Shown here: positions 13,279-52,428 of the stretch, in pieces | Numbering within the stretch: position 1 is the stretch's first letter | Layout: each line of letters starts with the position of its first letter | Origin: Candidatus Sulfomarinibacteraceae bacterium | GTDB taxonomy: Bacteria; Acidobacteriota; Thermoanaerobaculia; Thermoanaerobaculales; Sulfomarinibacteraceae | Length of the DNA: 64,000 nucleotides | NCBI GenBank assembly: GCA_963796455.1 | Contig: CAWCLO010000001.1 | Coordinates: forward strand, 480,001-544,000 | Direction: 5' to 3' | The notes under the pieces: model-generated | What the model saw: only the letters and a program-made list of their open reading frames with translations | Databases searched by the model: none | What the model was told of the DNA's origin: nothing | Made by a program: the position numbers and the translations under genes

Positions 13279-13730
13279 ATCTGTCGTCAAAGGCGGAGTC
13301 TCGGACATCGTTCAGGGACAGCGACGGGGATCGGCAGACAGCGACAGCGAACAGGAGTCAGTGGCAGCATTCAGTCATCACAGGCTGTCTTCGGCGACAG
13401 CGTTCAGGCTGGCTGTTCTGGAGATCTGAAATCATGACTTTGGGTTGACTACCCCTTCTGTTGAACGACCCGGAGGTGGCCACATCGTCGCCTGTACTCC
13501 TGACCGCTGCCCTGAACACTGATCGCTGTTCTCTGTCGCTGTCCCTGTTCGCTGTTGCCTGTCGCTGACGCTGGACACTGTCGCTGACGCTGCAATTCGG
13601 GCACGGGCATGGACGCGGACGCGGACGCGGGCGCGGGGCAATCGCCACCCGGATATCCGAAAAACCAACCCGTAAACCACGTGTTGTCAGGTGGGCAACT
13701 TCAATTGACGATTTGTTCTGGACAGCAGTG
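13279..13730. mobile_element. TIR element copy 1 (internal deletion, ORF-less)
   Basis: Degenerate left TIR, right TIR CTGGACAGCAGTG, intact 32-nt core and retained ORF tail (NPKS*). Flanked by AT on both sides within an (ATTCCTN)n array. Confidence 0.8.
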
Positions 13731-15135: not shown

Positions 15136-15330
15136 TTGTGGTGTAGGGGTCTCGCCTGCACACCGTGCGGCCGAGACGGCCGCACCACAAAGGCCGGAGC
15201 CCGAAGAAGTGAATGCTGTTCGCTGTCCCGGCCGCTGATCACTGACGCTGATGACTGATTGCTGCCGCTGACTCCTGATCTCTGTCGCTGTCCCCGAACG
15301 CTGTCCGAGACATTGTCTTGAACAAGAGTG
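15136..15330. mobile_element. TIR element copy 2 (half copy: REP-like doublet, arm and one end)
   Basis: Ends in TTGAACAAGAGTG-AT and aligns with 42569-42828. Confidence 0.75.
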
Positions 15331-19643: not shown

Positions 19644-19893
19644 TCTGTTGAACGACCCGGAGTTGCCCCGCCGTCCCTGCACCTGATCGCTGGCTCTGAA
19701 CACTGATTGCTGCCCCCTGTCGCTGTTTGCTGTCTTCTGTTCGCTGTCGCTGACGCTGACGCTGGACACTGTCGCTGCCGCTGCAATTCGGGTACGGACG
19801 CGGGACAACCGCATACCCGATAAACCAGAAGCCAACCCGTAAGGTGTCGTTCAGTGGGCAACCTCACATCATGATTCGTTTTGTACGGTAGTG
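19644..19893. mobile_element. TIR element copy 3 (half copy, degenerate core end)
   Basis: TCTGTTGAACGACCCGGAG, GCTG-rich arm, GCTGCAATTCGG, CCAACCCGTAA and a degenerate TIR TTGTACGGTAGTG. Confidence 0.75.
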
Positions 19894-25366: not shown

Positions 25367-25739
25367 CACTCGAGTCCAAAAGAGTGCCATCGGACAGCGT
25401 TCAGGGACAGGGTCAGCGAACGGGAGTCAGCGTCAGCGTTCAGTCATCATCGGCCATCGTCGGCGACAGGGTCAGTCTGACTGGCATCGAGATCCGAAAT
25501 CACGACCTCCGGTTGAGCTAACGCCACGCCGTCACGGCACCAGATCGCTGCGGCTGAACACTGGACACTGTTGCCTGTCGCTGACGCTGGATCCTGACGC
25601 TGGACCCTGTCGCTGCCGCTGCAATTCGGGATCGGGATCGAGAACGTGCCAACCGCCAACCGAATATGCCAGAAACCAACCCGTAAACCACGTGTTGTCA
25701 GGTGAGTAACTTCATGACAATCTGCTTTGGACAGCAGTG
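25367..25739. mobile_element. TIR element copy 4 (internal deletion, ORF-less)
   Basis: AT-CACTCGAGTCCAA...TTGGACAGCAGTG-AT, intact core, and an ORF-tail remnant GAAATCACGACCTCCGGTTGAGCTAACGCCA. Confidence 0.85.
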
Positions 25740-30732: not shown

Positions 30733-31004
30733 CTTCGTCGCCTCCAAAGGAATCCCGATCCGCCTGGGCGGTACCGGGGCGGGGAGTATACATGCCTTCC
30801 CCAGCGAGGACAAGGGGTCGCGGGCTGCCCGCAGGGAAACGGAACGGGTCCCGTCGTTCGATGCTCGATACTGGATGCTAGATGCTAGATCACTGCTGTC
30901 CAAGACATCATCTCAGACAGCGATCAGGGACGGCGACAGCGATCAGTGTTCAGCATCAGCGAACAGTAGTCAGCGTCACGTTTGACTGGTATGGAGCCCT
31001 GAAA

Positions 31005-31378
31005 TCAAGACTTTGGGTTGAGTAAACGCCAGGTCATCGCACGGACTTGATCGAAGGCCTTCATCGCTTCACCGGCTCCATTCCGGTTGACCGCCCCAGC
31101 GTGGACGAGGAGCTCCAGGTGGCTGTCGACCTCTTTCGCCGAGGCGTAGGCGATTCTCCAGTGGTTCGATCGGTCTCTACCAATCGGCCGTGCCCTTCTG
31201 CCAGATTCGCAGGGACCGAACTTGCCGACCGGATGACCTGATCGGCAATGGACTTCAGCGGAGCTGGAACCCTCATCACGAGCTTGATCGCGATTCCTGC
31301 TGCTTCGAGGGCTTTCGAGTGGGCAACGAGGTTGGTGGTCGTGGCGGCTGAGGAAATGGTCACCTCCGGGTCGTTCAT
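31005..31378 (-). pseudogene. Four-helix-bundle protein (Avd / 23S rRNA intervening-sequence protein-like), frameshifted near 31182
   Basis: IADQVIRSASSVPANLAEGHGR in one frame continues as GRDRSNHWRIAYASAKEVDSHL...VRAMTWRLLNPKS* in another; about 124 aa when repaired. Confidence 0.88.
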
Positions 31379-31391
31379 GCCCATATCCACA

Positions 31392-31462
31392 AGCCGGTGT
31401 GGTGGCCGATGTCAAGGATGCCCTGCACCCTGCCTGTCCTTGACATCGGCCGCCCACCGGCT
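31392..31462. promoter_or_regulatory. Strong hairpin immediately upstream of the four-helix-bundle start
   Basis: 15-bp perfect stem GGCCGATGTCAAGGA/TCCTTGACATCGGCC, extended by AGCCGGTG/CACCGGCT. Confidence 0.75.
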
Positions 31463-31964
31463 ACCTATTCTGTTGAACGACCCGGTGGTGGCCACTTCGC
31501 CGACTGGACTCCTGATCGCTGCCGCTGGACACTGATTGCTGATCTCCGTCGCTGATCCCTGTCGCTGACGCTGCCTCCTGTCGCTGTCCCTGCACCTTGG
31601 ACGCTGTCGCTGCCGCTGCAATTCGGACGCGGACGCGGACACGGGCACGGGCACGGGCACGGACAACCGCGAACCGGATATGCCAAAAACCAACCCGTAA
31701 ACCACGTGTTGTCAGGTGGGTAACTTTTCGTGAGATTCTGTTTTGGACAGCAGTGATGCGAGATGCTGGATCCCACAACCACTTGGCAGAGGGGCACGGG
31801 GGGAGAGGGGCGGAGGACAGCCCGGCATCCTCGCTATCGCTATCGGGATCGCTATCGCTATCGAACGGCTGCTGTGGATATCGACCTCGAAAGGTGGAAA
31901 GGAGCCGACGGGAAAGGGAGAACCACTCGGCACCAATTTCTCCTAAACGCGAATGTCGCCTCCC

Positions 31965-32087
31965 GATGTCATCCTGAGCGGAGCCCGCCCTGGGGCGTAG
32001 TCGAAGGATCTATTGCCCACCCGGGGGAGACCCAAGGCCGCAGATCCTTCGACTCCGCGCTCGAAGCGCTGCGCTCAGGATGACATC
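31965..32087. repeat. Long palindromic repeat (GTCATCCTGAGCG...CGCTCAGGATGAC type)
   Basis: 16-bp perfect outer IR plus 13-bp inner IR AGTCGAAGGATCT/AGATCCTTCGACT; half copy at 42208-42286. Confidence 0.85.
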
Positions 32088-32099
32088 TTGAACGACAGT

Positions 32100-32269
32100 G
32101 CCGATCCCGATCCCGAAAGGGAGAAAGGGAGAAAGGGGGAAAGGGAGAGAAGGGAGAACCGTGCCGGAAGGATCTGCTCATGATAAGGAGCAGGGTCCTC
32201 TGCTCCTCTGCTCCTCTGCTCCTCTGCTCCTCTGCTCCTCTGCTCCTCTGCTCCTCTGCTCCTCTGCTC
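32100..32269. repeat. Composite octamer repeat: (AAAGGGAG)n - spacer - (CTCCTCTG) about x9
   Basis: 8 perfect CTCCTCTG units at 32203-32266 plus partial units. Confidence 0.9.
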
Positions 32270-32882
32270 ACTTCTCGCCAGGATGCACCGGTAAACCGTC
32301 CTCTTCCTCACCATGCTCGCCCCACTCGGCGGGTGCCGGGATTCCGAAAATCCGGTATCCGTCGGCCTCCGGTACCAGAACGACTCTCCCATGTGCGTCC
32401 AGAACTTCGTCTTCCGGCCAGAGCGCGCCACTCGAGCTGTCAAAAGCCCGAAAACCGAAAGGCACTTCCGCTCCATCTGGTGCGAGCCAGTCGGGGACCA
32501 CCAGATCCCAGCGCTCGTCATCCTCGGCAACCGCCCGAAATTCGATTGCTGCACCGGTCTTCGACCCGAGGTCCTGGCGCGCGGCGAGCAGTTCCTCCGC
32601 CTCGCCGAGCAGATCTTCGAGCATCTGCTCGGCAAAGGCCTGGACCTTTTCACCGTCATCGGTGCCCGTCACCTCAGCAGACAGGAGCAGATGGTACTCA
32701 TCACCTTCGAGCTCGTCGCCGGCTACGAAATCAAATTGAAGCTCCGAACCGTCTTCGACGGATTCGACATCGAAAGACGAGCCATGGACCAAATCTCGTA
32801 CCACGATCGCGATCAGCAGCTCTTCGGTCGAGGACGCCGGAAAGCCGATTTCCCACCCTGTTTCCCACGATGCCATCGTCAT
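32268..32882 (-). CDS. Acidic hypothetical protein
   Basis: 4-bp overlap with the ttcA stop; coherent composition. Confidence 0.7.
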   Translation of the reverse strand: MTMASWETGWEIGFPASSTEELLIAIVVRDLVHGSSFDVESVEDGSELQFDFVAGDELEGDEYHLLLSAEVTGTDDGEKVQAFAEQMLEDLLGEAEELLAARQDLGSKTGAAIEFRAVAEDDERWDLVVPDWLAPDGAEVPFGFRAFDSSSGALWPEDEVLDAHGRVVLVPEADGYRIFGIPAPAEWGEHGEEEDGLPVHPGEK

Positions 32883-40868: not shown

Positions 40869-41137
40869 CATTGCTGTCCAAAACAGATCGTCCTTTGAAT
40901 GCACCCACCTGACAACTCGAGACCTACGGATTGGCTTTTGGCCATATCCGGTTCCCGGTTCTCCCGTGTCCGCGTCCCCGTCCGAATCAAGCGGCAGCGA
41001 CAGCGTTCAGTGTTCAGCGGCAGTGAGCAGCGACAGGGAACAGCGGTCAGCGATCAGTACTCAGCGATCCGCGGTAACGGTCAGGAGTCCAGGCGGCGAA
41101 GCTACCACCTCCGGGTCGTTCAAAGGAACGGGTAGCC
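40869..41137. mobile_element. TIR element copy 6 (half copy, opposite orientation)
   Basis: AT-CATTGCTGTCCAAAACAGATC, CCCACCTGACAAC, CAGCG-rich arm and CCACCTCCGGGTCGTTCAA. Confidence 0.8.
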
Positions 41138-42299: not shown

Positions 42300-42828
42300 C
42301 ACTGCTGTCCAAAACTGCTCGTCAATTGAAGTTGCCCACCTGACACCACGAGGTTGACCGGTTGGTTTTTGGCATTTCCGGTTCGTGGTTGCTCCGGGGT
42401 CCGAGTCCGCGTCCAAATTACAGCGGCAGCGACAGTGTGCAGTGGCAGCGACACCGACAGTGATCAGCGGCAGGGAACAGCGACAGAGGACAGCGTTCGG
42501 CGGCAGCGATCAGGAGTCCAGTCGGCGAAACGGCCACCTCCGGGTCTTTCAACAAAAGGAACAGCCGCTGTGGTGTCGGCGTCGCGCCTGCCCACCGTGC
42601 GGCCGAGACGGCCGCACCACCAAGGCCGGATCCCCGAGGAATTAGTGCTGTTCACTGTCCCGGCCGCTGATCGCTGACGCTGATGACTGAACACTGCCGC
42701 TGGCGACTGTTCGCTGTCGCTGCCCCGGCCGCTGATCGCTGACGCTGACTCCTGATAGCTGACGCTGTCTGCCGTTCCCCGTCGCTGTCCCTGCACGCTT
42801 ATCCGAAACTCAGTCTTGGACAAGAGTG
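42300..42828. mobile_element. TIR element copy 7 (two-ended, opposite orientation, REP-like doublet as cargo)
   Basis: CACTGCTGTCCAA...TTGGACAAGAGTG; doublet at 42569-42620. Confidence 0.85.
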
Positions 42829-52023: not shown

Positions 52024-52428
52024 CACTCTTGTCCGAGACAGGTTCTCGGCTACCGTTCAGGGACGGCGACAGCGATCAGCGTCAGAGACAGGGAACAGCG
52101 TTCAGTAGTCAGCGGCAGCGACCAGCGGCCGGGGCAGCTTCAGCTTCGGCGAACAAACGACCCGAAGGTGGCCACGCTGTCGCGGCACCTGATCGCTGTC
52201 CACTGATCGCTGTCCACTGACCGCTGTCCCTGATCGCTGTTCCTGATCACTGCCCCCTGTCGCTGTTCGCTGTTGCCTGTCGCTGCCGCTGCAAATCGGG
52301 CACGGACGCGGACGCGGACACGGGCACGGGCACGGGCCACCGCGAACTGGATATGCCAAAAACCAACCCGTAAACCACGTATTGTCAGATGGGCAACTCC
52401 ACATGACGATCTGTTTTGGACAACAGTG
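52024..52428. mobile_element. TIR element copy 8 (two-ended, no cargo)
   Basis: CACTCTTGTCCGA...TTGGACAACAGTG; core matches at 30 of 32 positions. Confidence 0.85.

Follow-up and report, generated by a model that had tools for sequence, protein, structure and literature searches.

A probable IS4-ended insertion cassette without transposase that carries a four-helix-bundle gene in a Sulfomarinibacteraceae genome

Introduction

The spacer upstream of rplS in the genome of a Candidatus Sulfomarinibacteraceae bacterium (G000; 5.02 Mb in 10 contigs, 90.5% complete) contains an 865-bp unit, stacked with other repeats, whose only gene codes for a four-helix-bundle protein. The unit lies at 30891–31755 of the 64,000-nucleotide stretch analysed here (the window; C1:480001–544000), and it raises two questions: how a unit of this kind has multiplied, and what its gene does for it. 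An earlier note, made from the sequence alone, had proposed a proliferating MITE-like or RNA-structured family mobilised in trans, in which the protein would be the cognate factor or a fixed passenger. The same spacer also holds a REP-like palindrome, a GCTATC hexamer tract and two 8-mer arrays (31960–32090, 31840–31880 and 32115–32270); it is a stack of nested repeat modules, and relatives fill it with other modules.

Results

Structure of the unit

Both the 865-bp unit and the perfect 13-bp inverted repeat described in the earlier note are present at 30891–31755, although the perfect repeat is peculiar to the window copy; the ends of the family are imperfect repeats of about 18 bp, of the types CACTGCTG.. 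(end A) and CACTCTTG.. (end B). Read in the sense of the gene, with all parts but end B on the minus strand, the unit starts with end A (31738–31755), which is the IS4 right inverted repeat (IRR), and continues with the so-called conserved core (31665–31737), a GCCCGT-type hexamer tract (31629–31664) that forms the outer edge of the cargo and is the start of many one-ended copies, and a 5' arm of degenerate, CAGCG-rich hexamer repeats (31491–31628). A structured leader (31361–31490) precedes the gene (31005–31378; PF05635 / TIGR02436), behind which stand a 3' arm of degenerate, CGCTG-rich hexamer repeats able to pair with the 5' arm (30909–31004) and end B (30891–30908, plus strand), the IS4 left inverted repeat (IRL), whose positions 5–6 resemble the right repeat in this copy. 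Two features had been overlooked, namely a 9-bp target duplication (30882–30890 and 31756–31764, 8/9 identical) and the insertion target, a 7-bp tandem array at about 30861–30890 of which the left copy of the duplication is the last unit. The gene has 124 codons in intact siblings. In the window copy it starts at 31378 and, compared with an intact sibling, lacks one base after codon 65, a frameshift near 31183 by which it stops at 31061 and not at 31005; related reads and contigs have an extra base at 31181–31184, and either a mutation or an error of assembly could account for the missing base.

Size of the family

The seven other window copies reported before all match at their positions and in both orientations. 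They are located between genes, and a whole ORF is found in none of them. Two are two-ended and ORF-less, one of 529 bp (42300–42828, plus strand) whose duplication is lost (2/9) and one of 405 bp (52024–52428, minus strand) with a duplication of 7/9. Two further ORF-less copies have a decayed end B (13279–13730, minus strand, end A intact) or a degenerate one (25367–25739, minus strand, inside a 7-bp array), and the remaining three consist of end B and the 3' arm alone (15136–15330, plus strand), a decayed 5' half (19644–19893, minus strand), and end A, core and 5' arm alone (40869–41137, plus strand).

Over the whole genome the family is larger than reported, with about 207 loci once ends and ORF pieces are merged. 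Searched with profiles of the two ends, the genome has 183 B and 107 A ends; its reversed sequence, used as control, gave zero matches scoring at least 16. There are 82 A/B pairs, 81 of them shorter than 1 kb, and these two-ended copies fall into 32 of 817–895 bp and 49 of 341–724 bp; all 81 (341–895 bp) map onto one reference copy, and there is no transposase gene between their ends. The ORF is present in 32/32 long copies, running in A-to-B sense in 31 (28 intact) and inverted in one, with three broken, and most or all of it is lost in 49/81 two-ended copies. A protein search gave 95 loci, 88 of them above 70% identity, with 58 intact ORFs, many of which have a single IS end. The single 23S rRNA gene of this genome has no family copy inside.

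Several rearrangements have been observed among these copies. The interior is inverted relative to the ends at C10:352981–353797, C1:390883–391606 and C7:133820–134343, likely by recombination between the arms, and six pairs have two B-type ends. One internal deletion, which fuses the 5' stem of the leader to about codon 64 of the ORF, recurs at seven loci (e.g., C1:367921, C1:999780, and C10:438034) and in L178. At C3:12441–14185, a transposase gene (IS481-like, by reading of its translation) sits within a cassette copy. A second high-copy family (at least 20 copies, as repeats of 500–1000 bp) has similar repeats and no clear ORF.

Origin of the ends

When metagenomes were scanned for the end motif, at least 125 stretches matched, about 80 of which were examined. 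Among the matches listed, 80 distinct ends include 27 with an IS4 transposase inward and one with a four-helix gene, the others having fewer than 300 readable bases (24) or neither gene (28). The two transposases scanned matched NF033592 with 256 and 243 bits (cut-off 115) and have the domains DUF4372 and DDE_Tnp_1. Again among the matches listed, the CACTCTTG type (B) makes up 13 of the 14 ends that precede an IS4 transposase, whereas eight of the nine CACTGCTG-type (A) ends adjoining such a gene lie downstream of it. The left repeat is thus B and the right one A, which makes the cargo gene opposite in direction to the lost transposase. One autonomous IS4 element with both ends (L268, 1411 bp) was found in the same-genus genome G017. 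The core, which the earlier note had taken for a special conserved part of the element, aligns with the right end of L268 (z 4.1) and not with its left end (z -0.8), the values for other IS4 elements being -0.8 to 3.0 for right ends and -1.5 to 1.8 for left ends; with moderate support from this comparison, it likely corresponds to the subterminal part of the right end of the parental IS4.

The accessible text of PMC2266710 (Table 1) gives for subgroup IS4Sa ends of the form CA------T and duplications of 8–10 bp. The family consensus ends fit this form, the 9-bp duplication is within that range, and a DDE transposase with the YREK motif and a size of 1150–1750 bp are found in the autonomous elements L146, L151 and L268, not in the cassette. 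The parent would therefore fit IS4Sa, an assignment drawn from ends, size and duplication and not from a tree of ISfinder members. The nearest named plasmid match of the transposase is the ISGme2 family (35%), and ISfinder entries for the parent IS may exist.

Elements with the same ends and a DDE transposase, which the earlier note had proposed to look for, thus exist in metagenomes and in a same-genus genome. On the other hand, a matching transposase was recovered in only one of 31 genomes by protein search and one of five by DUF4372, G017 in both cases, and was not found in G000 (90.5% complete), G006 or G431, although all three carry IS4-ended copies. The same note had also named a resident transposase of a known family, combined with a single gene-bearing copy, as evidence against its reading; the ends do belong to a known family, IS4, but the transposase was not found in G000 and the gene is in dozens of copies. 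Resident transposases were rejected as donors: the genes scanned (one DDE_Tnp_1, five of six Y1, two IS110 pieces, and an IS481-like and an IS91-like gene, the last two labelled by reading of translations and not by a family match) have no such ends of their own. No DDE_3 match was obtained in G000. Nor was a link of the REPIN/RAYT type seen, since none of the five Y1 loci scanned has family ends within 1 kb, and the sixth locus is the tandem partner of a scanned one. At C4:1143372–1147450, two Y1-transposase units stand in tandem, with terminal inverted repeats of 32 bp. Short IS4-ended elements occur also in unrelated metagenome contigs (L195, 408 bp; L147, 449 bp; L154, 277 bp), each flanked by perfect 9-bp duplications; the interior of L195 contains a hexamer-armed hairpin, hinting at independent captures.

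Evidence for movement

In the 81 pairs, the match between flanks is best at 9 bp (0.77 versus 0.50 in shuffled pairs, z 16), and for the 24 pairs outside arrays the 9-bp match is 0.71 versus 0.32 (z 11), with no other length from 1 to 14 prominent. The duplications would imply transposition in trans by a cognate transposase. That only 21 of the 81 are perfect, with at least eight matches in 40, counts against this reading. Perfect duplications were found at two of the seven two-ended IS4 loci with both flanks readable, namely the autonomous L145 and L176, and are absent at L146, L181, L189, L190 and L209. A 2-bp AT duplication was discarded as an artefact of the 7-bp periodicity (9 = 7 + 2), because non-array sites show 9 bp only.

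Comparison of orthologous sites points in the same direction. In the 17 of 18 same-genus genomes in which rplS was found, its upstream spacer measures 93–414 bp, versus about 1530 bp in G000, and 17/17 have neither an IS4 end nor a four-helix gene. The earlier picture, in which a MITE-like family lacking a transposase proliferates by mobilisation in trans and carries a conserved passenger gene, is thus supported by the 58 intact copies and the empty sites. The alternative that the protein is the cognate mobility factor in cis found no support, since ORF-less copies of 433–456 bp, 93–98% identical and with duplications of 8–9/9, stand at different sites (the eight closest rows) and have therefore transposed without the gene in cis. 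As for the 65 one-ended copies, no hidden duplication above chance was found at the open side, with the exception of two perfect matches, one of which lies at a decayed A end; these copies are read as decay products. The candidate explanation by 5'-truncated retro-insertion was rejected because truncated copies show no duplication at the truncation.

Insertion into 7-bp arrays

A 7-periodic flank adjoins 111 of the 238 strong ends (47%), whereas 1.4% would be expected from the intergenic background (crude gene mask, 81% coding) and 3.6% when this is weighted by the target profile of 77 metagenome sites. Conversely, 78 of the 156 arrays of the main type in G000 contact an end. The arrays are not arms of the element, as 27/28 typed pairs are direct and both orientations occur (17 and 10). 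ORF-bearing and ORF-less two-ended copies are inserted in arrays in 18/32 and 32/49 cases, respectively (p 0.49). All three autonomous elements of the group (IS4 L268, and ISL3 L269 and L270) lie within short-repeat arrays, against 0/26 for the IS4 ends from unrelated metagenome contigs among the matches listed. Arrays may also have grown after insertion.

The gene and its protein

The ORF is under purifying selection. The 58 intact ORFs of G000 encode 57 distinct proteins, with dN 0.047, mean dS 0.33 and dN/dS 0.14 (0.06 in codons 31–85), and pN/pS is 0.55 for private variants and 0.12–0.14 for shared ones. In four other genomes, dN/dS is 0.26, 0.16, 0.21 and 0.13 for 30, 24, nine and five intact ORFs; all these estimates refer to intact ORFs only, the loci of relatives being best-scoring matches with broken copies excluded. 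The copies are mosaics in which linkage decays with distance over tens of bases (rho -0.13, p 0.002), as expected for short conversion tracts, and duplication state does not vary with how close in identity an ORF is to its nearest sibling (rho 0.0, n 29).

The structure predicted for a sibling protein (pLDDT 91) has four helices only. Its fold matches XCC0516 (TM 0.79), BT_0352 and Avd (entries 2GSC, 2RLD and 4DWL), with TM 0.73, rmsd 1.8 Å and 10% identity to Avd 4DWL and a net positive charge, and no catalytic family was matched by the protein. The matched structures are pentameric, judging from the five chains of each entry and a title cited in the accessible text of PMC10053308. The link to reverse transcription that this likeness had suggested to the earlier note was not borne out, as G000 (90.5% complete) gave no RVT_1 match and private changes show no excess at adenine (21/110 at A, which makes up 23% of bases). 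Four more PF05635 genes of G000, divergent and single-copy (C4:1278094, C1:983149, C9:2726, and C10:733004), are each flanked by inverted arrays of their own 6-, 7- or 8-mer. The repeat types of these genes recur gene-less elsewhere, the window included, and GxxExxY (PF13366) genes with inverted short-repeat arms have been noted at C1:453963 and C1:750134.

Leader, arms and folding

Two nested stems are found in the 130 bases before the start codon, both on the minus strand: an outer stem (31490–31474 with 31377–31361) that covers the start codon and codons 2–6, and an inner stem (31462–31438 with 31417–31392). The leader has 96% pairwise identity in G000. In 20 leaders less than 90% alike, chosen from 115, both partners have changed in 14 of the 23 pairs of the inner stem, a signal that collapses in slid controls; such covariation could, however, come from intrastrand correction of palindromes alone. 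The outer stem is nearly invariant (dS 0.009 in codons 1–7 of G000) and is hence uninformative on structure. The arm duplex is more stable than shuffled sequences in 31 copies (z about -7.5) although the 3' arm is the least conserved region (69% pairwise), and the whole element folds with z -9.1, sense and antisense strands about equally. IS elements are known to hide start signals against read-through. No sigma-70 site was found within the leader by promoter scan, and Rfam gave weak miRNA and snoRNA matches far below cut-off for the window and zero for five relatives. For sequencing runs, the best shares are 0.28 or lower, and the single RNA run (share 0.10) contains contigs of relatives only. 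L085 and L137, one of them IS4-shelled and the other ISL3-shelled, have a further hairpin, similar in the two and about 110 bases long, inserted just ahead of the ORF at its start codon.

Relatives and a second shell

The protein subfamily is narrow, with a DNA match in 18/18 same-genus genomes and a close protein match in one of 400 genomes across the phylum; the closest relatives by protein belong to Ca. Sulfomarinibacteraceae or Thermoanaerobaculia. In many relatives, GG(C/T)TCATCC ends enclose the leader, arms and ORF described here. Cassettes with these ends have 8-bp duplications (28 loci, 0.65 versus 0.48, z 6.7), a figure lowered by several right ends mis-called by motif. ISL3 transposases (PF01610) bounded by GG(C/T)TCATCC ends were found in two of the five genomes searched (G008 and G032, not G014, G005 or G031), and at L270 such a transposase stands beside a cassette. 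In a 46-row tree, a branch with support 99/94 separates the 14 IS4-shelled rows from the rest; the tree has up to about six rows per genome, nine unlabelled rows, midpoint rooting and open inner forks. One switch of shell is the simplest reading and is favoured on balance; its direction, which rests on the midpoint root, would be from ISL3 to IS4. Records labelled as Alphaproteobacteria or Chondromyces (L085, L135, L137, L140, L143, and L144) hold cassettes 91–95% identical to same-genus ones, which would reflect mislabelled bins or horizontal transfer.

Discussion

The best explanation, and a probable one, is that of a transposase-less cassette with IS4 ends and 9-bp duplications, likely moved in trans by cut-and-paste, whose hairpin-wrapped four-helix cargo is kept by selection and is likely older than its shell. 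The IS4 shell and the mobility themselves can be held with high confidence. The cargo (hexamer arms, leader, and ORF) would have travelled first on an ISL3 shell and replaced an IS4 transposase once, in the ancestor of the IS4-shelled genomes; a visiting IS4Sa-type transposase, now absent or unassembled, would then have amplified the cassette in trans, a donor that is likely but assumed, given the lack of matches in G000, G006 and G431. Arrays would be favoured because each 7-bp unit adds another overlapping AT-N5-AT target, a step that is incomplete, since IS4 ends elsewhere show a weak target preference from which 3.6% of sites would be expected in arrays, versus the 47% seen. Copies would later have swapped short tracts through gene conversion, and the leader would conceal the start codon, so that read-through transcripts yield little protein. 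As for the protein, it may tentatively be proposed that it acts as a putative basic pentamer that binds its own cassette, in the form of hairpin RNA or single-stranded DNA, and favours the persistence or copying of the copies that encode it, not as a cutting enzyme.

The array bias has also been considered as the work of the protein. As a trans-acting cofactor of target selection, it would bind arrays and draw both IS4 and ISL3 elements to safe intergenic sites, a role that would be the reason why both IS families captured the gene. The 111/238 strong ends adjoining a 7-periodic flank versus 1.4% (3.6% weighted), the arrays around L268, L269 and L270 versus 0/26 unrelated metagenome IS4 ends among the matches listed, and the inverted short-repeat arrays around each of the four single-copy PF05635 genes all agree with such a role, as does a predicted fold shared with Avd, which assists the enzyme of a mobile element. 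We nevertheless regard it as unlikely: unrelated contigs may simply be without arrays; ORF-bearing and ORF-less copies are equal in arrays (p 0.49), which excludes a cis effect only; and a single small protein would need to work with two unrelated transposases. In addition, IS4-family insertion into REPs (ISRm22) and the preference of IS50 for clusters of overlapping sites have been reported without such a factor (PMC1525189, accessible text), so a cofactor is unnecessary to explain the bias. Selfish homing of the cargo, with its own copy-in into hexamer-armed sites and incidental IS ends, is less probable still. The mosaic copies, the independence of duplication state from ORF identity (rho 0.0, n 29), the many intact ORFs with a single IS end, and the much stronger constraint on shared than on private variants would suit it; but two-ended copies have duplications of IS length, the 65 one-ended copies have none hidden beyond chance (two perfect ones excepted), ordinary gene conversion within a set of about 60 paralogues is enough to account for the mosaics, and the protein model has four helices only, with no catalytic family match.

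Two further explanations fare worse. If the gene were an inert passenger, never expressed and persisting by drift and homogenisation, a leader that would conceal the start codon, the loss of most or all of the ORF in 49/81 two-ended copies and the Coxiella homologue, apparently not made in vivo (PMC4990558, accessible text), would all be in keeping with it. Values of dN/dS of 0.06–0.26 in five genomes are, however, impossible by conversion alone, and 58 ORFs with a mean synonymous distance of 0.33 between them are still intact, which makes this reading very improbable. A retroelement, in which the Avd-like protein and a reverse transcriptase would copy a structured RNA to new sites, can hardly be credited: the fold, the strong structure (z -9.1) and the excess of 3' over 5' ends (183 versus 107) speak for it, whereas against it stand the absence of RVT_1 matches in G000, private changes without adenine excess (21/110 at A), truncations without duplication, and ends and duplication lengths that fit DDE transposons.

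The IS4-ended cassette has counterparts among known systems. Judged by its sequence, the unit fits the definition of a mobile insertion cassette, with IS-derived repeats, no transposase and a passenger gene, as given for MIC231, from the IS231 subgroup of IS4, in the accessible text of PMC6199540 (the class is named in that of PMC6542083). According to the same text, MIC231 likewise has two IS4-family repeats, no transposase, one passenger and about 0.85 kb, keeps a subterminal piece of the parent IS and is expected to be mobilised in trans. The present cassette differs in coming from another IS4 subgroup (ends CACT.., 9-bp duplication), in having a single passenger, held by purifying selection, intact in about 60 copies, in its hairpin arms, and in the ISL3 ends of relatives. 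It is like IS4Sa (PMC2266710, accessible text) in ends and duplication, and its autonomous relatives, which measure about 1370–1430 bp and have YREK, fit that subgroup too; the cassette itself has no transposase. The 23S rRNA intervening sequences of Coxiella and Leptospira likewise have complementary flanks that pair into a long stem, with a PF05635 gene in its loop (PMC4990558, available part); the cassette, on the other hand, stands between ordinary genes and not in rRNA, has hexamer-repeat arms, IS ends and an extra hairpin over the start codon, and its ORF is conserved, not decaying. It shares with the Avd of DGRs (4DWL; PMC10053308, accessible text) the fold, by prediction, and a net positive charge, but no reverse transcriptase, template or variable repeat was found with it, and there is no adenine mutagenesis. 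Like ISRm22, another IS4-family element, it is concentrated in extragenic repeats, and the imperfect duplications there, ascribed to recombination between copies (PMC1525189, available part), offer a further likeness; targets here are 7-bp tandem arrays and not REP palindromes, and the mobile unit is non-autonomous.

The ends, being IS4 inverted repeats, are not new. For the cassette itself no published description was found, nor was one for this gene with repeats or mobility, in a search that covered mainly openly accessible papers; the accessible text of PMC4679880 offers no explanation for heptamer arrays and makes no reference to the four-helix protein.

Significance

The cassette is of interest because a gene of the rRNA intervening-sequence family, in the same gene-in-stem layout, moves here as DNA on two unrelated IS shells. 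One published idea on how the intervening sequences arose and what their ORF does is that they are remnants of transposition or that the ORF served mobility (PMC4990558, accessible text), and here a member of this gene family is held by purifying selection in dozens of copies. A bolder reading, which we consider doubtful, is that of a selfish cassette that hops between shells, its protein binding the hairpin repeats of spacers as an adaptor that would steer IS4 and ISL3 elements into arrays independently of the transposase. If this were true, it would be the first function of PF05635 outside DGRs, would tie heptamer arrays to transposition, and would give a route by which rRNA intervening sequences arose. 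If the protein leaves transposition unaffected, the cassettes would still be an unusually successful family of passenger-carrying MITEs that shapes the spacers of sediment Acidobacteriota.
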